Shown: in pieces, positions 47,387 through 62,200 of the stretch | Position numbering within the stretch: the stretch's first letter is position 1 | Layout of the letters: the number at the start of each line of letters is the position of its first letter | Assembly: GCA_030587475.2 (NCBI GenBank) | Contig: JAUQYZ020000230.1 | Location: forward strand, 1-64,000 | From: Candidatus Sigynarchaeum calidifontis | Lineage (GTDB): Archaea; Asgardarchaeota; Lokiarchaeia; Sigyniarchaeales; Sigyniarchaeaceae | Direction: 5' to 3' | DNA: 64,000 bases | Made by a program: the position numbers and the translations under genes | The notes under the pieces: generated by a model | Told to the model about the DNA's origin: nothing | What the model saw: the letters and a program-made list of their open reading frames with translations, nothing else | Database searches by the model: none

Positions 47387-47866
47387 CTATGCCTTATCGT
47401 GATGGTGTTGGTCGTCATGTCTATGCTCCTTCTCATCGCCCGCGTCGCCGCGCGGGAACACGTACAAAGGCACGAGCTCGCAAAATAAAATGCCCTTTAT
47501 GGCCTTGACTTGCTCGACGAATGACAAGACGCTCGTGACTTCACCCCGCAATGCGATTACTTCAGAACAGTTCTCCTCGGAAACATGGACATGCATGGTC
47601 GAGTAGATATGGATGCCGGCGTTGTGTTCGATCTCGGTGAGCTCATCGAGGAGGCCTCTCTGGTGATGGTTGAACGCGATGACGAGGAACCCGTCCTCGA
47701 ATGTATCTGGCCGGAGCGTCGCCTCCTTCTTCAAGAACTCGCGCAAGGCATCCCGCACCACCTCGGACCGCTTGGCACCTTTTTCCTTGCAATACTTCTC
47801 CAGCTCCGCTAAGAAATCCTTCGGGATCGTGATCGTGACGCGATCCATGTCCTTATCTGAGTACAT
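47387..47866 (-). CDS. nikR: Nickel-responsive regulator NikR with a His-rich tail
   Basis: RHH domain RVTITIP...RSEVVRDALR; Ni ligands IEH, MHVH and ENCSEV; tail EHRHDDQHHHDKA. Confidence 0.92.
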   Translation of the reverse strand: MYSDKDMDRVTITIPKDFLAELEKYCKEKGAKRSEVVRDALREFLKKEATLRPDTFEDGFLVIAFNHHQRGLLDELTEIEHNAGIHIYSTMHVHVSEENCSEVIALRGEVTSVLSFVEQVKAIKGILFCELVPLYVFPRGDAGDEKEHRHDDQHHHDKA

Positions 47867-48308
47867 CGGAATGACCTCGGATGACGGTCATTTCTTCCCG
47901 TGGTAACATATATAATTGCACGGCGGTTGGATCACGGATATCACGGGATCGCAGCTCCGGGAAAAACGGACGACGGGGACGCCGGTGCCCTTCGACGTCC
48001 CCGCGTCTCTCAAGGTAGCCAAATGCCTTGCCTAAAGCTGGTGCCGTGAGGTGTCTTGTCGAGCCTTTTAGGTGAAATGTAAACGTTCCAAGGCCATGCT
48101 AACATTCAAGCAAGATCTATTTAACAATTTCAGTCATTGGCTTCATGTGTCAAGTTAACCGGGGATTCTGCGAAATACTCGACTTTGTAGAGAGATCTTA
48201 AGGCATCCGACAAAAATGAAGTTCAACCAATTTAACCGCGAAATCGTTCTCCACGGGTTATTTTTTCTGCTTCCCGTTGCGAATCGTTGTCATCGCAATG
48301 GCATTAAA

Positions 48309-48336
48309 GTAATACTTTATTCCAAAGAAGTATGAG
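48309..48336. promoter_or_regulatory. Putative NikR operator overlapping the start of the ECF S-like gene
   Basis: GTAATAC-N14-GTATGAG; same 7-14-7 geometry as the sites at 48979 and 55703. Confidence 0.6.
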
Positions 48337-48961
48337 CAACGACTTCGCAAGCAAAAGCACCTTGTATGTTAACGGTGAAATCGATACATCGATCATTTCT
48401 GAAAATGACCAAAATACCAATCGAAAATCCAAGGATATCGCCTTGATCGCGATCTTCTCTGCAATCCTTGGCATATTAGCAATTTTTGCATGGATCGTGC
48501 CGTTCAGGCACATCACGATGGAATTTCTCATCAACGTGGTCGTTATCTTGTTATTAAAGATTGCCCGACGAAAGGGCACCTTGTTTTTCACCGGCCTGAT
48601 CACGGGATTCATCGATTTTTTCGCGGGATTGTCTGGCCCTGGCGGGTTTCTCGCCCCGATTGTCTACGGCTTTAAACTGGGCTTTTTAGAATCGGCAAAT
48701 CACTATTATAAAAAACCGCGCCATAGGAACGCGATGCTCATCGTGGTGAATTCAATTGGATATTTTCTCACGGGAACTTTGATCTGGATAATGTACACGG
48801 CACTATTCATTCCTCTTGGGACCGAGTCCACGCAAAAGATGTGGTTCGTGTTGACCCTCGCGGGTGCGTTGATTTGCATCCCCGCTACCGTCTTCGCCAT
48901 AAATATATATGATAGGTGGTTCAAGCCGCACGCTCGGATCCTCATGCAAACGAAAACGTGA
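48332..48961 (+). CDS. ECF-type transporter S-component-like membrane protein
   Basis: KDIALIAIFSAIL first helix, RRKGTLFFTGLI, about six TMs, about 200 aa. Confidence 0.65.
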   Translation: MSNDFASKSTLYVNGEIDTSIISENDQNTNRKSKDIALIAIFSAILGILAIFAWIVPFRHITMEFLINVVVILLLKIARRKGTLFFTGLITGFIDFFAGLSGPGGFLAPIVYGFKLGFLESANHYYKKPRHRNAMLIVVNSIGYFLTGTLIWIMYTALFIPLGTESTQKMWFVLTLAGALICIPATVFAINIYDRWFKPHARILMQTKT

Positions 48962-48978
48962 AGTGGTCCACGAAGGGA

Positions 48979-49006
48979 ATAACACTTTTTTTATTCTGGA
49001 TATGAC
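48979..49006. promoter_or_regulatory. Putative degenerate NikR operator adjacent to a TATA-like TTTAAA upstream of chlD
   Basis: ATAACAC-N14-ATATGAC immediately followed by TTTAAA (49007-49012). Confidence 0.5.
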
Positions 49007-49060
49007 TTTAAAGGTTGATTTACTAACTGGCCGTGAACGAAGATCATCGAGACGACACGC

Positions 49061-51070
49061 GTGACGCACTATAAAACCTTCCCGTTCAGCGCCATCGTTG
49101 GGCAAAACGACATGAAGCTCGCGCTTATCTTGAATGCTATCAACCCGAAGATCGGCGGGGTTTTAATAAAGGGTACCAAGGGTACTGCAAAATCTACGGC
49201 GGTACGAGCACTTGCCGACTTGCTACCCGAGATCCGGGTCATCAAAGACTGCCCGTTCAATTGCAATCCTGAAAGCATCAAGGAATCTTGTCATACCTGC
49301 CAACACAAGCTAGAAGCTGGGGAAATAACTGAAAAGGATATAGAAACGAGAAAGATGCGCGTTATTAACCTCCCCATCAATGCGACAGAGGATCGCGTCG
49401 TTGGTACCATAAACATCAAGGAAGCATTGTCGACAGGACTCAAAGCGCTTGATCCAGGAATCCTTGCTGATGCGAACCGGAATATTCTATATATCGACGA
49501 GGTTAACTTGCTTTCGGATAACGTGGCCGATATATTGCTCGATTCCGCTGCGATGGGTATCAACATCATAGAACGGGAAGGGATATCTCTCCATCATCCG
49601 TCAAACTTCATCTTGATAGGGACCATGAATCCCGAGGAGGGAAACTTGCGCCCGCAATTGCTCGACAGGTTCGGACTCGGTGTAGAAGCGGAGATTATAA
49701 CTAATATCCCAGACCGGGTCGAGATCGTGCGTCGTTCCGAGGAATACCATGCGGATCCCTCCACCTTCTACGAAAAATACGATGCAAAACAGAACGCCCT
49801 TCGCAAGCAGATCGTTGATGCACGTGCTTTATTACCCGAAGTACGCATTCCAGACGAGCTTCTAGAAAAAATTGCATCGGTTTGCGTGGCATTCGAGGTC
49901 GACGGACACCGGGCCGACATAACGATAAATGCAGCGGCGAAAACGCTAGCCGCTTTCAACGGGCGACGCGAGGTCTCGATCGAGGACGTGAAACATGCCA
50001 CGCGGCTAGCATTGATGCACAGATTACGTCGCCTTCCATTCGAGGATAAGAAGCTAGACGTCCATAAAATCGACGAGTTACTGGATAAACCCGAGCATTC
50101 TGGGGGGCCAGACCCGTCGGACGAGGGAAATCCCAAAATCGATAAAAGCGATAAAGAAGCGGGAAAACGCCAGGTCGTTAACCAGCGGGAAACGACCTTC
50201 AACATCGGCGTTGGCATGAATGCAGATAAGGTGATCCATTTGCATAAAACCCGTGAATTGATGAATGCATCGGGGCGCATCGTCCCGCACCCGACGAACG
50301 ACAAGCGTGGTGCCCAGTCCGGGATCGAGAAGCCTCGACGTAGCATCAACATGCCAACATCGAGCGATGTCGCTATCTTGCCCACGATCAACGAGGCCGT
50401 GTTGGATCCAGAGAACCAGGCGTCTGTAAAAGCTGGCGGTTCCATTAATGTTGGCGAGAACCACATTCACGTGAAGAAAAGATCGGGAAAATCGAGCTAT
50501 GCCATTATTTTTTGCGTCGACGCGTCGGGATCCATGGGCGCGGAGAACCGGATGGAAGCTGTTAAGGGTGCGATCTTCACCATTCTCCAAGGAAGTTACG
50601 TCCGGCGGGATAAGGTTTCCCTCGTCGTGTTCCGGCAAGACAAGGCCGAAGTCGTATTGCCACCGACCCGGAGCATCGATCTCGCGTTCAAAGTTTTGAA
50701 GGAAATTCCAACGGGCGGTACGACCCCCTTGGCTGCGGGTTTGCTCAAGGCAATCGATGTCGCAGCCGAGGAGAAACGCAAAGCTACCGGCTATATCCCC
50801 TTGATCATTATCATCACCGATGCCCGGGCGAACGTGTATGTTCACGACGCAATTGATGATGCTAAAAAAGTCGCGAAATACATTGCGGAGCAAGGCGTGG
50901 AGACAATCGTGATCGACACGGAATCACCAAGCTTGAAACTTGGTCTTGCGAGAGAAATCGCCGATGCAGCGAATGCCACGTATTATCCCATAGACCAGTT
51001 TGGAAAAGACGAGATCCGGAACGTGCTCCACGCGGAAGGCTTGCTCGAACCGATGACAAGCGAATCCTAA
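49061..51070 (+). CDS. chlD: Class I chelatase AAA+/vWA subunit (ChlD/BchD-type, with ChlI-like ATPase domain)
   Basis: [44 protein letters not shown]; vWA motifs DASGSM, GGTTPL and ITDARAN. Confidence 0.92.
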
Positions 51071-51086
51071 TTGTTCGTGATTTTTC

Positions 51087-54000
51087 ATGCCTTCCAATCT
51101 CCGAGTGAACAAGAAACCATCCGTCGTCATAGTTTCCTCGATGGTATGCACCCGGAACTTGATCGACGCAGCTGCCACCGTTCGAGAGCAGCTGGGAAGC
51201 GTGTTTGATATTTCCGTTTTTTTCGTGAACGATGTCGAAACAGGAGTCGTTTCTAAATCAACATTCGTTACTGCCATTCATGATGCCAATGTCTTGATGA
51301 TCGACATTCGCGGGAACAATCTCGCCGCGGAACTCATCGTTGAAACCTATGAGGCAATGGAACGCGATGAACCAGCTTTGTTCAAGGAAAAAAGCATCGT
51401 TTCGCTTGTCGGGGGCAATGAGGAAATCAGGCGCTTGACCAAGCTCGGGCCTTTTATGGCCCGATCTATCCCATCGAAAAAGAAAAGCGAGTTGGGGATG
51501 GACGGTATTCCAGATCTTTCGGATCTCGTCAAGAAAGGCATACGGATCGGGCAAATGATGAAGTCCGCGGGAAAATACTTGCCGGTCGGTTCGCTCAAGC
51601 ACGCGCGCAACTGGATGCTGCTCATGGATTATTGGGCTTATGGCCACGCGGGCGTTCGCCAGAACCTCGAGAACATGTTCAAGCTGGTCCTCCGAGACTA
51701 TCTTGGCCACGAATACCTCGAGGTGCCCGAGCCTCAGAAATTCCCTCCTATCGGTATATACGACCCTCGTGACAATCGATATTATGCATCCACCGAGGAG
51801 TACCATCGCGCCCACGTTCCCGACCCCACCAAGCAGACCGTCGGTTTCTTCTTTTATGGGGGTATTTATTTCGAACAGACGCTGCCCGTGCTGGAATCAT
51901 TCATGGAAAAGCTATCAGATTACAATCTTATTCCCGTATTTTCGGAATCTTTGGAAAATATCCACGCGCACGAGAAGTTTTTCTTTAAAGATGGCGTGCC
52001 GATCGTCAACGCTGTCATCAACCTTCAATATTTCCAGATAAATGGTGGTCCATTCGGAGGTGACAATGCGCGCACGCTTGCATTGTATCGGCGGGAAAAC
52101 GTTCCACAATTTAATCCGGTAATTTTATTTGACTCGAAAAGAGAAGAATACGAAGCCTCCACGAAGGGTACTATCCCGATCAACCAGGTCATCGCTGTAG
52201 TGATGCCCGAGCTCGACGGCCGGATCGAGATGCTCGCGGCCGGAACAATGCAAGACAAGGGGATTCCTGATGGAGAACAGCTTCCCGTTTTGGAAGTCGG
52301 TCCTATCGAGGAAAACATCACCATCATCGCGAAGCGGGTCAGAAAATGGCTTGACCTCCGTGCAAAGTCAAATAGTGAAAAGAAAATTGCCATAATCCTC
52401 TATGATTATCCTCCTGGTGAAGCAAAGCTCGCGAGTGCTAGTTATTTGGATGTTCCAAGTTCCATCAAACGATTGCTAGCTTTGCTCGCACGCGAGGGAT
52501 TTATTACTTTCCCCTTGCCTGATGGAAAGGAAATTCAAGACATTCTTATGGAATCAGGAGCCATCAACTCCCCGAAGCACGTAGACGTGAAGGATTACAA
52601 GGGCATTTCCATCGATGCCCAACAATATAGCGAGCTCCTTGCATCGTTACCAAGCGAGACCCGCCAACGTGTCATCGACGCATGGGGCCCTCCTCCTGGT
52701 TCCATCATGGTCAAGGATGGCCGCATTCGTCTTCCCATCTTGCAATTTGGTAATGTCTATATTTGCTTGCAACCAGCCCGCAGCGAGGTGACTGGGGATC
52801 CGGTCGAATATCATGACAAAGATAAACCTCCCCATCACCAGTATGTCGCGTTGTATCGATATTTGGATGAGGTCGTCGATGTCGACGCCATCATCCATTT
52901 CGGTACCCATGGAACTCTTGAATTCTTGCCCGGGAAGGAATGCCTCGGCAACGTGAGGGATGATAACATTGCACTGCTCGGGCGGATCCCGAACATCTAC
53001 ATCTATCACGTGGGTAACACGAGCGAGTCAGCCATCGCGAAGCGACGTTCGAACGCGGTCATCATCAACCACGCTGGTCCAGCGTTCGAATCCTATAACT
53101 TGAATCCAGACTTGCTCCAACTAGAAGACCTGGTGAACGAATGGCAAGACGCGCGCTCATCGAACGGAAAACAAGATGAAGGATTGCTCGATAACATCCG
53201 AGAGATCGCTCGAAGAATAGGCATCGAATACTCATCGATGGCGGAACTGGAGGCGTTGATCCCCCGGTACAAGCTCGCGGCAGTTCCGATCGGCCTCCAC
53301 GTGCTCGGGGAAACGTTCACGGTCGGAGAACGTAAAAAATTAATCACGCGTGCACTTCTAGACTCGGTCGAAGCCCCAACCGCGATAGACGCCGTGATCA
53401 ACAGGTTTGGTAAGAATGAGCATGCCGTGTTGCACGAGATCGAGCCCGTGGTCGAATCGATCATCACCAACAACATGGCTCCACCAGGTAGCAAAGGATA
53501 TACAGAGATGGCGAAAAAACTGGGAATTGGGGAAAAGGATCTGGAGCAACTAGCAAGATGGGTCGCAGATCTGTCGGCACGCATGGAAGATTCCTACGAG
53601 GAACGTAATATCATCCGGGCCCTAGAAGGCGGGTATATCGAACCTGGATTCGGTGGAGACCCCATCCGTACCCCCTCGATATTCCCGACGGGGCGAAACT
53701 CGTTTGGTTTTGATCCACGCTTGATCCCGAGTTCCATCGCTTTTAAGCGCGGCGAGGAAATCGCCAATCGCCTTCTACAGCAGTATAAAGATGAGCATGG
53801 CACGTGGCCAGAGACGACAAGCGTTGTCCTCTGGGGTTTCGAGACCATGAAAACTGGTGGTGAAACCGTCGGGCAGATATTTAGTTATATGGGCGTTAAA
53901 CCCGTCAAGAAGAAGTCAGTATGGACGACCGAGCTCGAAATCATCCCGCTCGCCGAGCTTGGTCACCCGAGAATCAACGTGGTCGTGACAATCTGTGGTA

Positions 54001-54863
54001 TTTTCCGAGATACGTTCCCGTATATCCTTGATCTGATAAACCGGGCCATCGAGCTGGTCTCGAACCTGGACGAACCTGTCGACCAAAACTACGTGAAAAA
54101 AGCCACGCTTGATCTCGAAGCCCGGCACGTGCAACATCCGATTGCACGCATCTTTGGTCCATCGCCAAGTAGGTACAACACGAACATCACGGAGATCATC
54201 AATGCCGGCGCCTGGAAAGAGGAAGGAGAACTAGCGACCAATTACATCGAAACGATGGGATTCGCCTACTTGAAAAATCAAGAGGTCGAGGCCGCAAAGG
54301 ACGCGTTCGCAGCCCAGGTGACCCGCATCGAGCTGTTATCACAAGTTCGCGATAGCAACGAATTCCACGTGACCGACTTGGATCATTATTACGAGTTCAC
54401 CGGTGGCTTGGCACGGGCCCGCGAGCATCTCGCGGGCTCTAGGGCAAGCGTCTTTATCGCAGACACGTCACGGAAGCGGATCACCGTCGAAACCATTGAC
54501 AAGAGCATTAACGAAGGTGCGGTGACCAGGACACTCAATCCCACGTGGATCCACGGGATGCTCAAGCACAAGCACAGCGGCGGGCAGAAGATTGCTGAAC
54601 GCGTCGAGAATTTTCTTGGTATGGCTGCCACGACCCATGAGGTTAGCGAATGGATCTGGGACAAGACATACGCGCAGTACATCGAGAACGAGGAGATACG
54701 AGCCGCGTTGATCGAGAACAACCGGTTCGCCATGATGGACGTCGTGAAGACCATACTGCAAGCCAGCCAGCGAGGTTACTGGAACGCGAGCGACGAGCAG
54801 ATCGACACGTTGAAGAAATTATATCTGGAAATGGAGAGTTGGCTTGAAATCACGTATCAATAG
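51087..54863 (+). CDS. Class I chelatase large subunit (CobN/ChlH family)
   Basis: MPELDG, YDYPPG, PPHHQY, HFGTHGTLEFLPGK, PTGRN, VLWG.ET, GIFRD, TDLDHYYE and LNPTWI.GM motifs. Confidence 0.95.
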   Translation: MPSNLRVNKKPSVVIVSSMVCTRNLIDAAATVREQLGSVFDISVFFVNDVETGVVSKSTFVTAIHDANVLMIDIRGNNLAAELIVETYEAMERDEPALFKEKSIVSLVGGNEEIRRLTKLGPFMARSIPSKKKSELGMDGIPDLSDLVKKGIRIGQMMKSAGKYLPVGSLKHARNWMLLMDYWAYGHAGVRQNLENMFKLVLRDYLGHEYLEVPEPQKFPPIGIYDPRDNRYYASTEEYHRAHVPDPTKQTVGFFFYGGIYFEQTLPVLESFMEKLSDYNLIPVFSESLENIHAHEKFFFKDGVPIVNAVINLQYFQINGGPFGGDNARTLALYRRENVPQFNPVILFDSKREEYEASTKGTIPINQVIAVVMPELDGRIEMLAAGTMQDKGIPDGEQLPVLEVGPIEENITIIAKRVRKWLDLRAKSNSEKKIAIILYDYPPGEAKLASASYLDVPSSIKRLLALLAREGFITFPLPDGKEIQDILMESGAINSPKHVDVKDYKGISIDAQQYSELLASLPSETRQRVIDAWGPPPGSIMVKDGRIRLPILQFGNVYICLQPARSEVTGDPVEYHDKDKPPHHQYVALYRYLDEVVDVDAIIHFGTHGTLEFLPGKECLGNVRDDNIALLGRIPNIYIYHVGNTSESAIAKRRSNAVIINHAGPAFESYNLNPDLLQLEDLVNEWQDARSSNGKQDEGLLDNIREIARRIGIEYSSMAELEALIPRYKLAAVPIGLHVLGETFTVGERKKLITRALLDSVEAPTAIDAVINRFGKNEHAVLHEIEPVVESIITNNMAPPGSKGYTEMAKKLGIGEKDLEQLARWVADLSARMEDSYEERNIIRALEGGYIEPGFGGDPIRTPSIFPTGRNSFGFDPRLIPSSIAFKRGEEIANRLLQQYKDEHGTWPETTSVVLWGFETMKTGGETVGQIFSYMGVKPVKKKSVWTTELEIIPLAELGHPRINVVVTICGIFRDTFPYILDLINRAIELVSNLDEPVDQNYVKKATLDLEARHVQHPIARIFGPSPSRYNTNITEIINAGAWKEEGELATNYIETMGFAYLKNQEVEAAKDAFAAQVTRIELLSQVRDSNEFHVTDLDHYYEFTGGLARAREHLAGSRASVFIADTSRKRITVETIDKSINEGAVTRTLNPTWIHGMLKHKHSGGQKIAERVENFLGMAATTHEVSEWIWDKTYAQYIENEEIRAALIENNRFAMMDVVKTILQASQRGYWNASDEQIDTLKKLYLEMESWLEITYQ

Positions 54864-55004
54864 TATACTTGTACGATTGTGCGATTTTTTCCACGAACAT
54901 CCGAGCTATTTCTTTAATTCGATAATCATGGCCAAACGGCTTGATGATAAAGAAGAAAAATTGAAAAAATAGACACTCAACCCGGTTTCCATCGATATAG
55001 CAAA

Positions 55005-55373
55005 TTATCCGATGATGACTTGGGCTTTTTTTGCCTTACTTGGAATCTTGACCAACATCGCCGACACGATGACGATTATTGCCCAGACACCAACGATAGC
55101 AAATAGCATCGATGTTCCGAGCGTTGCCATCTCATAGAACATGACCGCGGCATCCGCTGGATCATTCATTGCAGTCAAGAACGGAAAGAAGGGAACAATT
55201 TCTTGGTGGGCAACATGTTCTAGCGCAAGCATGATGACCCCGCCCCAGAGTAACAGGCTGAGAACCCCCAACTTGTATTTATCTATCACTGATTGTTTTC
55301 CCACGCGTCGGAGGGTAATATCGATAGGTATCAAGACGATGGCTAATGCCATCGGAACAAGAAAGCAGGCCAT
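55005..55373 (-). CDS. Uncharacterised small membrane protein (MACFLVP... LWGG...EH family)
   Basis: Three TMs; LLWGGVIMLALEHVAHQEIVPFFPFLTAM. Confidence 0.8.
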   Translation of the reverse strand: MACFLVPMALAIVLIPIDITLRRVGKQSVIDKYKLGVLSLLLWGGVIMLALEHVAHQEIVPFFPFLTAMNDPADAAVMFYEMATLGTSMLFAIVGVWAIIVIVSAMLVKIPSKAKKAQVIIG

Positions 55374-55379
55374 AGTTGT

Positions 55380-55688
55380 TCAGCTCCGTACATGTTGCAT
55401 TTTTACTTTGGATACGAGGACTGCCAATTCCCAAATTGCAAAAACGGGGATGAGCATCGAGATACCGAGGATAAATCCATCCGCAATCAGACCATCTGTC
55501 GTGAATTCAATAAACGGGCTGGCGAAATCATATCCCCAAATATGATCGACAAGTATCATCACTGATGCACCCCATAGCATAACCGCTAACCAATCGAGCT
55601 TATACGTCTTCGGATTTGGTAAAGCAAGGTACACGGCTGTGACTGCCAAGGCAGCAATCAAGGTCGTTATGAGCCACACGTTTTTCAT
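55380..55688 (-). CDS. Uncharacterised small membrane protein (LWGA...DH), related to its downstream neighbour
   Basis: Three TMs; YKLDWLAVMLWGASVMILVDHIW parallels YKLGVLSLLLWGGVIMLALEHVA. Confidence 0.8.
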   Translation of the reverse strand: MKNVWLITTLIAALAVTAVYLALPNPKTYKLDWLAVMLWGASVMILVDHIWGYDFASPFIEFTTDGLIADGFILGISMLIPVFAIWELAVLVSKVKMQHVRS

Positions 55689-55700
55689 CTCGGAGAAGGG

Positions 55701-55732
55701 GAGTATTACGTCCCGTGAAAATCGTAATACTC
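55701..55732. promoter_or_regulatory. Perfect inverted repeat, putative NikR operator
   Basis: GAGTATTACG-N12-CGTAATACTC (core GTATTA-N16-TAATAC; compare E. coli GTATGA-N16-TCATAC), starting 13 nt upstream of the ATG at 55688. Confidence 0.75.
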
Positions 55733-56413: not shown

Positions 56414-56959
56414 ATGCAAGAAACAAGACGGGAACTCGCGAAAGAATCCTATCTTTCCGAGGTTGCTTCGATCATCATCAATATTTTTGTCGGGCTCTGT
56501 TTAACGTTGTTGATCTTGCCGCGACAGAGTTTCGGGCAGATCGTGCTCATGGTACCCGCCATGATTTCGACGAGGGGAAACATTTCTGGATCTTTTTCTG
56601 CGCGCACGGCTCGCGATCTGGTCATTGGTTCCTTCAGGCAAAACCATCACGAGAATATCTTATCCACGGTCGTGCTTACCATTGTCACAAGCGAGGTGAT
56701 CGGTGGCTTGAGCTTGTGCATCGCCCTTTTGCTCAAACCAGGCTCTCTTTTACCCGTGCATTGTTTTTTATTGCTTCCACTCATTACCATGCTTCTAACC
56801 GTAGTGGTATCCATCCCGATTTCCACGGGCTTGAACACCATCGCTTTCAAGAAGGGGTTGAACCCGAGTAACGTGGTCCCACCAATCATGACCAGCGTGG
56901 ACGACATTCTCGTGGTCGTGAACATGTTCATCGCTCTCGTAATATTGGGGGTGCCTTGA
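56414..56959 (+). CDS. MgtE/SLC41 integral membrane domain protein (half 1)
   Basis: PAMISTRGNISG...AR and GLNPSNVVPPIMTSVDD motifs. Confidence 0.85.
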   Translation: MQETRRELAKESYLSEVASIIINIFVGLCLTLLILPRQSFGQIVLMVPAMISTRGNISGSFSARTARDLVIGSFRQNHHENILSTVVLTIVTSEVIGGLSLCIALLLKPGSLLPVHCFLLLPLITMLLTVVVSIPISTGLNTIAFKKGLNPSNVVPPIMTSVDDILVVVNMFIALVILGVP

Positions 56960-57513
56960 TGCTGTCCTATTTTAAAAAGATCGTCCGAGAATCGAGCGGC
57001 GTGCTGATCGCTTGCACGGTCATCACGATGGTGTGCGGGATTGCTCTTTCCGAGAGCGATGAATTGCTCTCTGCTATCCCTTTTCTCGTCTTGATCATGC
57101 CCGCCCAGAATGACGTCGTGGGTGACATGTGCCAGGTGCTCGTGGGCAGGCTGGCTTCGCATCTCTATATTGGGCTCGTTCCAGCACGGCTGTCGTTCAC
57201 GCCTCGCGTCCGATACGATTTCCAGTCTCTTTTCGTGGCATTGTTGTTAAGCGTATCGACCTTGCTCGCGGTGAACGTGATCGTTGCCACGATTTCCGGG
57301 ATCGAGTTCGGTAACTTTTATAAAATCATCTTCGTCGTCTTCACCGCTGCCACCTTGTTATTTTCCATCATGTTCATCGTGCTCTTCACCGGTGCTATTT
57401 ATATCTTCAAGCATAACAAGGACCCGAACAATTTTTTAATCCCGATCACGACTTCATTGATCGACACGCTTTCTCCCATCTTCGTAGTATTGCTCGCGAG
57501 TATCGTCTTGTGA
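56956..57513 (+). CDS. MgtE/SLC41 integral membrane domain protein (half 2)
   Basis: P...DVVGD...GRLASHL and DPNNFLIPITTSLID motifs. Confidence 0.85.
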   Translation: MMLSYFKKIVRESSGVLIACTVITMVCGIALSESDELLSAIPFLVLIMPAQNDVVGDMCQVLVGRLASHLYIGLVPARLSFTPRVRYDFQSLFVALLLSVSTLLAVNVIVATISGIEFGNFYKIIFVVFTAATLLFSIMFIVLFTGAIYIFKHNKDPNNFLIPITTSLIDTLSPIFVVLLASIVL

Positions 57514-57541
57514 AACATGCGGGCGTGGAGGCACACGAGAA

Positions 57542-58786
57542 ATGTCCAAATTAAAGAAAAAATTCAAACCAGCCCCGATATCCCTCAAAGAAATATTGCA
57601 CGAAATGAAGACGAGCGTCGACGTCATGTTCGACCTTGCCTTTAGTGCCATCCTTTTCCAGAGCAAGGAAATCACGGAAGAGGCTGTAAATATCGACGAT
57701 CGCGTCCACGAGCTAACTGACCTGCTTGGCTACCAAGTCCTTCAAGCCAAGATAGGCCATTTTTCCGAATCGCGCAAGCTGGAGCCCGTCATCACGCTCG
57801 GCTATGCCATTGACAAGATATCCGAGGCACTTTCCGACATCGCGAAAGTCGTGCGCTTGAATGGCCACCTCGCGCAATTTTTCCAGCTTTGCTGGAAGGC
57901 TGATCCTGAACCCATCATCAAGGTTGCCGTGTCCAGTGAGACCGCTTTCTGTGGCAAGAAATGGGACGACATCCCGTTCAAGGCGGATTACGGCGTGGAT
58001 GTCATTGCCATCTACCATGAGAAAAAATGGATTTTCGATGAAAAAGCGATCATCAATAAGGGAGACATCCTCATTGTTTCGGGGGAACTTCCTGCACTCG
58101 CCGAATTCAAGAAGATCTGCAAGAGCGAAGAACCCATTTCCTTCGACTTGGAACGCAAGCAACCGATCGACTTGTTCGATCCCAACGACGAAAAAACGAT
58201 GGCAGTCGTTAAGCGCTTGAAGGAAAATTACGTGAGAATCACTGATATGTCGGAAACGATAGTTGACCTCGCTTTCGCGTCATTATTTTTTGGCAATCTC
58301 GAGATTGCCGAGGATGTAATAGATCAAGAACATTTCATAGATAACTTGATCGTTGATTTGGAGCGAGACATACTCACGCTTGCAAAAATGATTCCCGTGC
58401 CGGAGCGCCTGCTTGGACTCATGCGCATCGTGTTCTCGTGCGAGCTGATCTCCGACGCGGCTTCAAGCATCGCCGAAAATCTCCTCAAGGGATTTGAGCC
58501 CCACGAGGTGATCGTCGCAGCGTTTAGCGAGGCCTGGGATGTCGCCGTTCGGGAGGTCTTGGCGCCCGGTTCATTCCTCAAAGGAAAGACCGTCGCGGAG
58601 GTACACGTGCCAAAGCATTCCAAGGGTTTTCATATCATCGCCATCAAGCGAGACAACGACTGGATCTACGACATCAAGATGGATTTCAAACTCCGCGCAG
58701 GAGACATCGTGATCGGCATCGGTCCCAAGGAACAGATCAATTTCTGGCGGACGCAAGTCAATCCAAATGCCGATGTGGATGATTGA
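57542..58786 (+). CDS. PhoU + TrkA-C (RCK_C) tandem-domain protein
   Basis: Two repeats of a PhoU-like MK....MFDLAFSA...E.ISD segment, each followed by RCK_C (G.DVIAI...W...GDILI). Confidence 0.85.
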   Translation: MSKLKKKFKPAPISLKEILHEMKTSVDVMFDLAFSAILFQSKEITEEAVNIDDRVHELTDLLGYQVLQAKIGHFSESRKLEPVITLGYAIDKISEALSDIAKVVRLNGHLAQFFQLCWKADPEPIIKVAVSSETAFCGKKWDDIPFKADYGVDVIAIYHEKKWIFDEKAIINKGDILIVSGELPALAEFKKICKSEEPISFDLERKQPIDLFDPNDEKTMAVVKRLKENYVRITDMSETIVDLAFASLFFGNLEIAEDVIDQEHFIDNLIVDLERDILTLAKMIPVPERLLGLMRIVFSCELISDAASSIAENLLKGFEPHEVIVAAFSEAWDVAVREVLAPGSFLKGKTVAEVHVPKHSKGFHIIAIKRDNDWIYDIKMDFKLRAGDIVIGIGPKEQINFWRTQVNPNADVDD

Positions 58787-59514: not shown

Positions 59515-60933
59515 CTATTTTTCCCACAAGTAAATACATTTTCTCACCTCCTCCTTTCCGAAAGCACCCATCTGCTGGCTGCTATTTCCCTTGCCTGTTG
59601 GCAATTTGTCAATCTTCTTTAATCTCAGCCCCGCTTTTAGTGCAAACTCCGTGAGGATTAGATCAACTGGAATTACAACACCAGCAAATCGAACATTATC
59701 GTTTACATAGTAGATTTTTCCAGAGGTTTTCAAAACCCGAGCAAGTTCGAACATTATAAACGCGTGTTCGAGGAAATAATTATAGATCAATCTGAGAACA
59801 TTTGGATTATTTAACTGCTTTTTCGCTTTCAGATCTTCAAAATGGGAGATGATTGCTTTTAAAACTTCATTATTCTGAAATGTATTCAATGCTTTATTGA
59901 AAATTTCCATTTTATTGTTTTGAACATATATATTCTTGATGAAATCGAGCTTCTCTTTGTTTTCTACAGTACATGATAAGAGATTCTGCCTCAAGGCACT
60001 CAAAGCACTCTCATCGACTCCTAGAAATGCCAGTTCTAGGGCATACACTCTTGTATAATCGTACCTGTTCAAGTAAGGTGGAGATGTAATGATCAAATCG
60101 ATGGAACCATCTGGAATCGTCGGCAAGATCTGAAAATTTGATCCATGCTTGAGTTCCATTGAGTTTAATTTCCCTTTATTATGTACTGAATAGAATGATT
60201 GCAGATCCTCGATCATGCATGCAATTTGCGTGTACAATGCCTTTTCAAAGTCAAGTATTTTATTCTTGGTATATTCTGCCTTGGGTTTTCCAGATCGAGT
60301 ATCCCATCGTAAGAATTGTCCTGCTTTTTCAGTATAACTAACTTTTTCAAGAATCGATAAACAAACGAATTTAAGAATTTCTTGTAATGCCGGATCAGTT
60401 ATCACGTTTTTTATGTAAAAACGAAATGCGTTGATTTTTCTTTCTGTTTCAGGAGAAAAAGCCTTATCAGTAATTCTAACATGCTTAAAATTGGTCTCCT
60501 CGGATATTGGCATCTCCGCGAAATTTAGATCCTTTATTTGTCTTAGCAACCCCTTTAATACTTCTACGTCCATTTGTTCCGCTAGTAATCGAGCCTTAAA
60601 TACAAATGGTCCCACGGGTAGCAATTCAATCCCAATTGAATCAAGCCCTCGCTCACGAGCACAGAATAACGTTGTACCAAGACCTGCAAAGGGATCAAGT
60701 AAAACGCCGTTTGTAATGCCCGAATCTGTAATAAGATGGTTTACAAGTTTTGATGAAAAACCCTCTTGATACCTGTACCATCTGTAAAACGGCGCATTTT
60801 TATTTGCTTGTGAACTCACAAGTTGGCGATTTAGATTTGCATTTAAATGAATGAAATCCTGGTACCGGTCCTCCATCTCTTTGAGTAAACCTAAAAGGTG
60901 ATCGGAAACTTTAATATCGCTCGAGGTTTTCAT
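59515..60933 (-). CDS. Alpha-class N4-cytosine DNA methyltransferase (AT-rich, apparently orphan)
   Basis: Motif I DPFAGLGTT precedes the catalytic ITSPPY; C-terminal GKGNSSQQMG recalls the M.AvaI/M.BsoBI-like family (from memory). Confidence 0.88.
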   Translation of the reverse strand: MKTSSDIKVSDHLLGLLKEMEDRYQDFIHLNANLNRQLVSSQANKNAPFYRWYRYQEGFSSKLVNHLITDSGITNGVLLDPFAGLGTTLFCARERGLDSIGIELLPVGPFVFKARLLAEQMDVEVLKGLLRQIKDLNFAEMPISEETNFKHVRITDKAFSPETERKINAFRFYIKNVITDPALQEILKFVCLSILEKVSYTEKAGQFLRWDTRSGKPKAEYTKNKILDFEKALYTQIACMIEDLQSFYSVHNKGKLNSMELKHGSNFQILPTIPDGSIDLIITSPPYLNRYDYTRVYALELAFLGVDESALSALRQNLLSCTVENKEKLDFIKNIYVQNNKMEIFNKALNTFQNNEVLKAIISHFEDLKAKKQLNNPNVLRLIYNYFLEHAFIMFELARVLKTSGKIYYVNDNVRFAGVVIPVDLILTEFALKAGLRLKKIDKLPTGKGNSSQQMGAFGKEEVRKCIYLWEK

Positions 60934-61117
60934 CTTGAAGCACGAAACGACGATCGATAAAACGCGATCGTATAAGTAGTTGAAGAATTCATAGATAATA
61001 ACCCGTGTTTAATGCCACGGTATTAACCAACATGACATTCTGTCATTTGGCAAATCATAATGCTAAGCATGGCAGAACATCATTATCATCAATCATCAAG
61101 CAAAGCATGTTCCATCT

Positions 61118-62200
61118 ATGGTTGGCCTTTCCTATTGTGACTTGTTCTGCGGCTGCGGCGGGTTCAGCGCCGGTTTTAAGGAGGCCGGTTTCCGGCCGCT
61201 CGGCGGCATCGATATGGACAAGATGGCGTGCGAGAGCTATAAAATAAATATCACGGGACGCGTTCGGAACGAGGACATAACCGGGGTGTTCGGCCTCGAT
61301 TTCGCGCGGTGGCTCGGCGAGCGACCCGACATCGTGCTGGCATCGCCGCCTTGCGAGGGGTTTTCCGACGCGAACGTGAGCCGGATCGATGACGCGTGGG
61401 ACCGGCTATATAATCCTCCCGGCTCGCTCACGATCGAGGCCATCGACTGGATTTGTGACCTCGATCCGAAGCTTGGCTTCATCATCGAGAACGTTCCCGC
61501 CATCGGCGAAGGGGCTCTTGCAGGATACATCGCTGACGAGTTGAAGCGTATTGGGTATAGCAAAGTATACTTCAACATGATCCGCGCCGAGCGGGTGGGG
61601 TCCCCCTCGAAGCGCCCTCGATTGTTCATCAGTAATATGAAATTCGAGGAGCCTCCCGAGATCCCCGCATACAACCGGTTCAAGAGGACAGCACTCGATG
61701 CGGGGAATGGTGATGTGAATGCCGGAGCGAGTGATGACTCGCAAGGCGAAGCCGGGATCGATGCCGGTGGCGCCGAAGAATCCTGTTATAGCCTCGTGAC
61801 CGTGATGGATGCCCTTGCCGACTTGCCCGATCCTACCGCCATTCACGCCATCCCCGACCACGAACCCGCACCGATCTCTGCGACGCGAGAGAAAGAGATC
61901 GCGAACCTCAAGTGGGGCAAGTCGCTAATGCAGTTCGAGGGATCGAATGGTACGATGAAGAACACGTGGATCCGGGTGCATCCGTTCGATATTGCCCCGA
62001 TCTTGATGGGTAAATCCACATTTATCCACCCGTTCGACAACCGGCAGCTCACGATCCGGGAATACGCGCGGCTTCAAGGTTTCCCAGACACGTTCTTGTT
62101 CTGCGGCGGCTTTTCCGAGAAGAAAAACCAGATCGGCGAGGCCGTCTCTCCCCTCGTGGCGTATTATCTCGCGCGGGTGATCGCGGACAAAACCACGTGA
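61118..62200 (+). CDS. C5-cytosine DNA methyltransferase
   Basis: DLFCGCGG, SPPCEGFS, IENV, R.RLF, RLQGFPD and QIGEAV motifs. Confidence 0.92.
   Translation: MVGLSYCDLFCGCGGFSAGFKEAGFRPLGGIDMDKMACESYKINITGRVRNEDITGVFGLDFARWLGERPDIVLASPPCEGFSDANVSRIDDAWDRLYNPPGSLTIEAIDWICDLDPKLGFIIENVPAIGEGALAGYIADELKRIGYSKVYFNMIRAERVGSPSKRPRLFISNMKFEEPPEIPAYNRFKRTALDAGNGDVNAGASDDSQGEAGIDAGGAEESCYSLVTVMDALADLPDPTAIHAIPDHEPAPISATREKEIANLKWGKSLMQFEGSNGTMKNTWIRVHPFDIAPILMGKSTFIHPFDNRQLTIREYARLQGFPDTFLFCGGFSEKKNQIGEAVSPLVAYYLARVIADKTT

Follow-up and report, generated by a model that had tools for sequence, protein, structure and literature searches.

A probable nickel regulon in a Promethearchaeota archaeon includes a member of an uncharacterised class I chelatase clade

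In Candidatus Sigynarchaeum calidifontis, a 64,000-nucleotide stretch of contig JAUQYZ020000230.1 (hereafter the window) carries at 47387-55732 the repressor gene nikR, a gene for a membrane protein resembling ECF S components, two genes of a class I chelatase and a pair of small membrane protein genes (Table 1). This region is probably a real nickel regulon beyond chance, and its chelatase belongs to an uncharacterised clade. What does a chelatase do in a nickel regulon? The enzyme probably removes nickel from scavenged cofactors, because no synthesis of the ring was found and because its gene carries the type of DNA switch that precedes nickel importers. It may thus act as a scavenger that strips the metal from an imported tetrapyrrole during nickel starvation, a reading of its direction and substrate that we regard as evenly balanced between right and wrong. 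The open reading frames and the three 7-14-7 sites (at 48309, 48979 and 55703) that an earlier note had described in this region lie where it placed them, the sites letter for letter.

The evidence that carries the regulatory assignment comes from a comparison with related genomes. A half-site matrix was built from nine sites in chelatase-region promoters of other genomes, with the window left out, and its application to nikM and feoAB promoters is an out-of-sample test. At a score of at least 13 and a 14-bp spacer, a site precedes 29 of 29 nikM/cbiM genes in relatives; their promoters reach a mean score of 16.4 at this spacer versus 9-12 at other spacers, and it precedes none of the 20 feoAB operons that served as a negative control. 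An operator of two half-sites, 27-28 bp long, is therefore found before nickel/cobalt importers and is absent before iron importers. The 7-14-7 geometry is also that of published NikR sites, which consist of two heptamers 13-14 bp apart and occur with flipped half-sites (PMC545781). Altogether, the identity of the 7-14-7 site as a real NikR operator is strongly supported by these comparisons. An iron-sensing NikR was considered as well and is ruled out by the feoAB control.

A second matrix was rebuilt from the nikM-promoter sites, and it is partly circular because those sites were located with the first matrix. With this matrix, a site scoring at least 12 is present in 14 of the 16 chlD promoters of Promethearchaeia, with shuffle p values of 0.002 or below in GC-rich genomes. 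Outside Promethearchaeia, an operator of this kind lies ahead of the chelatase genes in Jordarchaeia/Freyarchaeota (about 20), Methanothrix and Methanolinea, and both gene and site are present in the cultured carriers Ca. Lokiarchaeum ossiferum and Methanothrix. Operator 3 is kept in two relatives, G005 (score 17.9) and G027 (14.2). The conservation in orthologous promoters that the earlier note had anticipated is thus observed, and its proposal that the chelatase is under NikR control finds support in the cross-genome comparison of operators, from which binding and repression by NikR are predicted computationally. The operators lie over a start codon, against a TATA-like box or between the TATA-like box and the start, and such positions would fit repression.

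Could the sites instead be chance words of AT-rich promoters or targets of another regulator, with the chelatase being a misplaced CobN or BchH without any link to nickel? The host genome (5.0 Mb, 89% complete, against which its negative results are to be read) provides several points that weigh against nickel control. Taken alone, operators 1 and 2 lie within the genome-wide background (ranks ~39 and ~57), and the cross-genome comparison was therefore needed; moreover, the genome-wide matrix scan of the host yields no excess of the 14-bp spacer. The second matrix ranks the promoters of the three units 35, 14 and 1 among 3,970 promoter windows of the host, and the scan reveals no further regulon member beyond these units. 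The wider regulon envisaged in the earlier note thus appears in relatives, where sites precede nikM/cbiM, but not in the host itself, whose ten annotated top promoter hits are unrelated genes and include no hydrogenase, carbon monoxide dehydrogenase (CODH) or other nickel gene. To these points are added two chlD promoters of genus g12 and the operons of the bacterial clade members, all of which lack the site, the failure of hidden Markov models (HMMs) to separate CbiM from NikM, and the adjacency of nikR and the S-like gene, which is confined to one genus among the genomes searched. Many relatives are also AT-rich, and in these the shuffles of single promoters are often not significant. However, an origin by chance is contradicted by the spacer-specific nikM signal, the negative feoAB control, the low shuffle p values in GC-rich genomes and the separate position of the chelatase in two trees, and we consider it very improbable. 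Operator 3 is the top site of the 5-Mb genome, in which its inverted repeat has no second perfect copy with a spacer of 10-18 bp.

The product of nikR (159 aa) has the features of a canonical nickel sensor. It scores 90.2 on the NCBIfam model NF002815 (cut-off 83), contains both the RHH and NikR_C domains of Pfam, and represents the only NikR_C match in the host genome. Its His81, His92, His94 and Cys100 are spaced exactly as His76, His87, His89 and Cys95, which form the square-planar nickel site of E. coli NikR (PMC7055735), and the strand of the RHH domain carries Arg9 and Thr11. The complete set of nickel ligands that had been read from the sequence is thus in place. The system shares these ligands, the DNA-binding strand, the 28-bp geometry and the sites at nikM with the NikR regulons of E. 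coli (nikABCDE) and deltaproteobacteria (nikMNQO), and differs from them by including a class I chelatase and unnamed membrane proteins and by a nikR gene without an operator of its own (rank 932-1507 of the 3,970 windows with the nikM-based matrix). Another NikR subfamily, in which a long His-rich stretch is inserted ahead of the first nickel ligand, is present in most other Promethearchaeia (loci L049, L051-L054 and L065; a TAA stop lies within the L054 gene). The closest nikR orthologue, in genome G009, is accompanied by a perfect operator. This operator (site 3017 of L048; the features span 1653-2942) is flanked by the nikR orthologue on one side and by a gene for a HemN/HutW-like radical SAM protein on the other, and G009 contains neither nikM nor the chelatase; the HemN/HutW-like gene is a singleton in 61 related genomes and is a possible second route for opening a metallo-tetrapyrrole.

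The chelatase consists of a motor and a large subunit. The gene named chlD in the earlier note is present, and its product is a ChlI-ChlD fusion of 669 aa (AAA+ plus vWA) with Walker A, Walker B and MIDAS motifs at residues 38, 143 and 487. The host genome encodes a second ChlI/ChlD-like protein (G000:C22:25814-27856), 46% identical over the AAA+ part, for which no large subunit was found. The large subunit, previously labelled cobN/chlH, is indeed a PF02514 member with a BchH-like best score, but it falls below every curated cut-off, including those of TIGR02025 for BchH (800 against 829) and of the CobN model (596 against 822), and belongs to a clade of its own. Several clade members pass TIGR02025, and this model therefore does not discriminate. 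In two trees (FastTree, 54 rows; IQ-TREE, 25 rows) with two BchH, five CobN and one HmuS reference, the large subunit forms a separate clade with support of 100/99, apart from photosynthetic BchH, corrin-operon CobN and HmuS; it groups with none of them, although BchH is represented by only two sequences and the separation from HmuS is weak because its one reference lies on a long branch. The placement outside the bona fide CobN branch agrees with what the earlier note had expected of a nickel enzyme.

Archaeal members of the clade occur in Promethearchaeota, Jordarchaeia, Methanothrix, ANME-1, Alkanophaga, Methanolliviera, Methanoregulaceae and Archaeoglobi, and bacterial members occur in Dehalococcoidia, Desulfobacterota and Bacillota. 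The nearest homologues of the large subunit that carry an organism name come from Lokiarchaeota/Promethearchaeota, in keeping with a Promethearchaeota (Loki-type) host. The cleft of the large subunit contains His608, Glu647 and Asp1099-His1100-x-x-Glu1103, and all aligned clade members retain the first cleft histidine and the D-H-x-x-E motif. The equivalent motif is D-D-x-x-Q in CobN, D-H-x-x-D in BchH and D-H-x-x-E in HmuS. As judged from trees, model scores and motifs, the large subunit represents an uncharacterised clade of anaerobes that is not CobN, BchH or HmuS. In the one-contig genome G003, the large-subunit gene is split into two pieces ~380 kb apart (G003:C1:2340290-2341069 and 2724763-2727849; L019 and L007), which reflects a rearrangement or an assembly artefact.

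Does the clade resemble any chelatase of known function? BchH/ChlH, which works with BchI and BchD, shares with it the best HMM and Protein Data Bank (PDB) scores, the AAA+/vWA partner and the N-terminal head domain; it is set apart by the model cut-off, its own branch in the trees, the lack of chlorophyll genes nearby and of HemB, and the fusion of the I and D subunits in our system. CobN with its CobST- or ChlID-type partner shares PF02514, and TIGR02442, the "putative cobaltochelatase" model, is the one that the motor subunit matches best, whereas the large subunit misses the CobN score and motif and no corrin ring synthesis was found in the lineage. HemB was found in 0 of the 61 related genomes and CbiD in 0 of the 41 covered by that count, and no tetrapyrrole methylase, MCR, CbiM or FeoB was found in the host genome. 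These absences, together with the failed cut-offs, argue against B12 or chlorophyll synthesis, as had been supposed from the window. Without HemB, CbiD or a tetrapyrrole methylase, any tetrapyrrole substrate would have to be external, and the need for an imported substrate is thus supported computationally. No nickel-tetrapyrrole enzyme is known for the host. Other nickel enzymes are encoded in its genome, which has genes for the large subunits of two [NiFe]-hydrogenases and for HypA, and two genes of the CODH family.

We propose the following mechanism for the regulon. When nickel is present, nickel-bound NikR would bind the three operators over the promoter or start and repress the units. 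When nickel is short, the S-like protein, probably with EcfAA'T, and/or the membrane pair would import nickel or a nickel chelate. The large subunit would hold the imported metallo-tetrapyrrole in its cleft by His608 and His1100, and the ChlI-ChlD ATPase would drive metal release, which would amount to a class I chelatase reaction run in the direction of HmuS. The released nickel would supply the [NiFe]-hydrogenases and CODH of the host. The likeliest natural substrate would be F430 or a relative from methane- or alkane-metabolising neighbours. F430 as the specific substrate is nevertheless a tentative suggestion, and so is the fuller proposal of an ATP-driven nickel de-chelatase that harvests nickel from the F430, or its breakdown products, of neighbouring methanogens and anaerobic methanotrophic archaea (ANME).

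The de-chelation step is modelled on HmuS/BtuS of Bacteroidota, which belong to the same superfamily and share the importer-adjacent relatives and the link to metal shortage. Both cleft histidines and the carboxylate partners of HmuS (His538/Glu577 and Asp1208-His1209-x-x-Glu1212) are kept in the large subunit. The two proteins differ in clade, in length (1258 versus 1463 aa), and in the ChlI-ChlD partner and NikR site of our system, and no hmuY, hmuR, hmuT, hmuU or hmuV gene was seen. HmuS removes the metal in an NADH-dependent, ATP-independent reaction without a ChlD partner (PDB 9d26; PMC12583661), and the analogy is therefore imperfect. The same paper calls the function of archaeal CobN/ChlH homologues unclear (PMC12583661).

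Several further points speak against a scavenging de-chelatase and open the way to two alternatives. To our knowledge, all ATPase-partnered class I systems characterised so far insert metal. Nickel tetrapyrroles resist demetallation, and, as a speculation, this difficulty could account for the motor. In the first alternative, the enzyme would use ATP to insert or exchange nickel (or cobalt) in an imported tetrapyrrole that is metal-free or wrongly metallated, as a high-affinity back-up of CfbA in methanogens and in the service of an unknown metallo-tetrapyrrole in Asgard hosts. An intact AAA+/vWA partner lies next to the large subunit in ~30 of 88 surveyed clade loci, and nearly all Promethearchaeia show this arrangement. 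Archaea with MCR often carry a member of the clade, and for the many members found in F430 producers, insertion or repair is equally plausible. One member, without an adjacent ChlD, lies inside an F430 cluster between cfbB-cfbD-cfbE and cfbA (L092:3816-12273); this locus, which counts equally for a role in scavenging and is the single link to F430, has no operator. In addition, CobN-like nickel chelatases were suggested earlier for F430 synthesis (PMC3087415), a step later shown to be performed by CfbA, which prefers cobalt in vitro (PMC7242693). However, with HemB in 0 of the 61 genomes and no MCR in the host, insertion would be left without a known nickel-tetrapyrrole product or precursor, and the operator positions fit nickel repression, which is better suited to acquisition than to consumption. 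We thus view insertion as rather doubtful.

In the second alternative, the enzyme would be a general metal salvage system that strips cobalt from corrinoids or Co-porphyrins, iron from haem, and nickel from Ni-porphyrins or a non-tetrapyrrole metallophore; its control would fall to NikR in some hosts and to a B12 riboswitch in others, and in archaea the NikR regulon might extend to cobalt as well as nickel. Cobalamin riboswitches indeed lie upstream of two Bacillota operons (L199:900-1452, in tandem; L229:1032-1230), where they precede NikA-like ABC genes, the chelatase and chlD. Given these riboswitches and the siteless bacterial members, the clade is not nickel-specific. Among the neighbours in the 88 loci, BtuF-like binding proteins (~51), ChlI/D (~30) and FecCD permeases (24) are the most frequent, and haem/B12-type TonB receptors (7) and NikA-like ABC systems (6) also occur, with no bch genes among the recurrent neighbours. 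The BtuF/IsdE-like proteins and haem-type receptors suit general salvage, and the importers as a group also count for the scavenging of nickel. Moreover, the membrane pair is also found in a cobalt/cbi cluster. General salvage is opposed by the absence of the site at iron-uptake promoters, by the canonical nickel site of NikR and by the little use of free cobalt in a lineage in which no corrin ring synthesis was found, and we judge it unlikely. A scavenger of nickel from imported tetrapyrroles remains our preferred reading.

The chelatase was also followed through the gene order of its relatives. Of the 61 genomes, 22 contain chlD and the large-subunit gene as a pair. The tight grouping of this pair with the S-like gene and nikR, described in the earlier note, is limited to one genus among those searched and is therefore local, whereas the regulatory link, as far as the operator comparison indicates, is class-wide. 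In G054, nikM, nikN, a site, chlD and the large subunit form one cluster, and in G005 the membrane pair diverges from nikMNQO with three sites in between. Of the 19 genomes without nikM, 14 carry the chelatase, as do 8 of the 42 with nikM, and in 20 added genomes the counts are 2 of 4 versus 3 of 16; this complementarity is weak support, because kin are not independent and the added genomes bear it out only in part. A search of ten archaeal loci with Rfam detected nothing beyond 5S rRNA and a tRNA. A Mur ligase by the Methanothermobacter pair was considered as CfbE and ruled out, since NCBIfam identifies a pseudomurein-type ligase. In Methanoregulaceae (L179, L180, L183, L184 and L194), the chelatase is directly preceded by arrays of genes whose products resemble archaeal type IV pilins, together with a methyltransferase gene.

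How the substrate might enter the cell is suggested by the membrane proteins of the region. The S-like protein has no Pfam or NCBIfam match; Atlas models resemble ECF S components with TM scores of 0.62-0.75, and its own single-sequence model has a pLDDT of 57. A shared EcfAA'T module is encoded elsewhere in the host genome (contig C49). As a route for most of the class, import through this protein is doubtful because its gene is rare (3 of the 61 genomes, and 3 of the 22 relatives with the chelatase), and the incomplete host genome yielded no BtuF-type binding protein. The 183-aa membrane protein that neighbours the Desulfobacterota members is not similar to the S-like gene. The family of the membrane pair occurs near nickel/cobalt importers, namely nikMNQO (G005), cbiMNQO with cbi genes, and BtuFCD-like genes, and shows no importer link at two other loci.

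Table 1. Features of the region and their positions in the window
Feature	Position	Strand	Remark
nikR, nickel-responsive RHH repressor with His-rich tail	47387..47866	-	Pfam RHH_1 and NikR_C; NF002815
Conserved RNA-like element	~47958-48105	-	TATA-like box upstream; GC hairpin and T run downstream
NikR-type operator 1	48309..48336	.	overlaps start codon of S-component-like gene; score 17.9 at the equivalent position in G001
Membrane protein with ECF S-component-like fold, 209 aa, candidate importer	48332..48961	+	fold-level assignment only
NikR-type operator 2	48979..49006	.	abuts TATA-like box 5' of chlID; shuffle p 0.002
ChlI-ChlD fusion, AAA+ ATPase and vWA, motor subunit	49061..51070	+	TIGR02442, 730 against cut-off 779
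Class I chelatase large subunit, 1258 aa	51087..54863	+	PF02514 full length, 971 bits
Small membrane protein A, paralogous pair	55005..55373	-	widespread unnamed family
Small membrane protein B, paralogous pair	55380..55688	-	operator 3 lies 15 bp upstream
NikR-type operator 3, perfect inverted repeat	55703..55730	.	15 bp upstream of small membrane protein B

Separate from the nickel unit, the 465-bp gap between nikR and the S-like gene harbors a conserved RNA-like element, for which the genomes searched gave no match outside this genus. Approximately 110 nt of the gap are 79% identical to a same-genus genome, far above the flanks. The element contains two stretches antisense to rRNA: 27 nt (48032-48006) are complementary to the 23S rRNA of a relative (96%), with one shared difference that forms a G-U wobble, and 19 nt (48060-48042) are complementary to the 16S rRNA of a same-family genome (95%). 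We take the targets to be rRNA from their flanking sequence, and the 23S target is presumably the helix 69-71 region. Rfam identifies no match to the element, nor any riboswitch or known RNA in the region as a whole, and obvious C/D boxes are lacking. One possibility is that the element acts as a guide or chaperone RNA of an unusual kind. At its 23S target site, the 23S rRNA of G036 has an insertion of ~30 nt (L058, around 534-590) and that of G028 appears interrupted (L057, around 490); both are probably rRNA introns. Beyond operator 3, on the other strand, two genes with MgtE membrane domains and a PhoU/TrkA_C-like gene (56414-58786, plus strand) form a cation transport unit with no evidence tying it to the regulon. 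Further along, at 59515-62200, translation reveals two DNA methyltransferase-like open reading frames of 472 aa (minus strand), which looks AT-rich, and 360 aa (plus strand).

A precedent for a nickel response in this superfamily comes from Methanothermobacter marburgensis, in which CobN1 increases ~300-fold under nickel limitation; the part of that report considered here proposes no mechanism (PMC12350162). The likeness to our system is limited there to the CobN family and the nickel response, and M. marburgensis makes F430. Consistent with the earlier note, a literature search retrieved no characterised nickel de-chelatase and no F430 salvage enzyme. The present study defines a widespread chelatase clade, ties it to nickel by an operator test with a negative control, and corrects the common annotation of its genes as B12 or magnesium chelatases. 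In hosts from which ring synthesis is apparently excluded, the possible chemistry is narrowed to imported substrates. If the enzyme does harvest nickel from F430, it would be the first enzyme known to turn this coenzyme over, and it would make metal cross-feeding part of the syntrophies in which cultured Promethearchaeota live.

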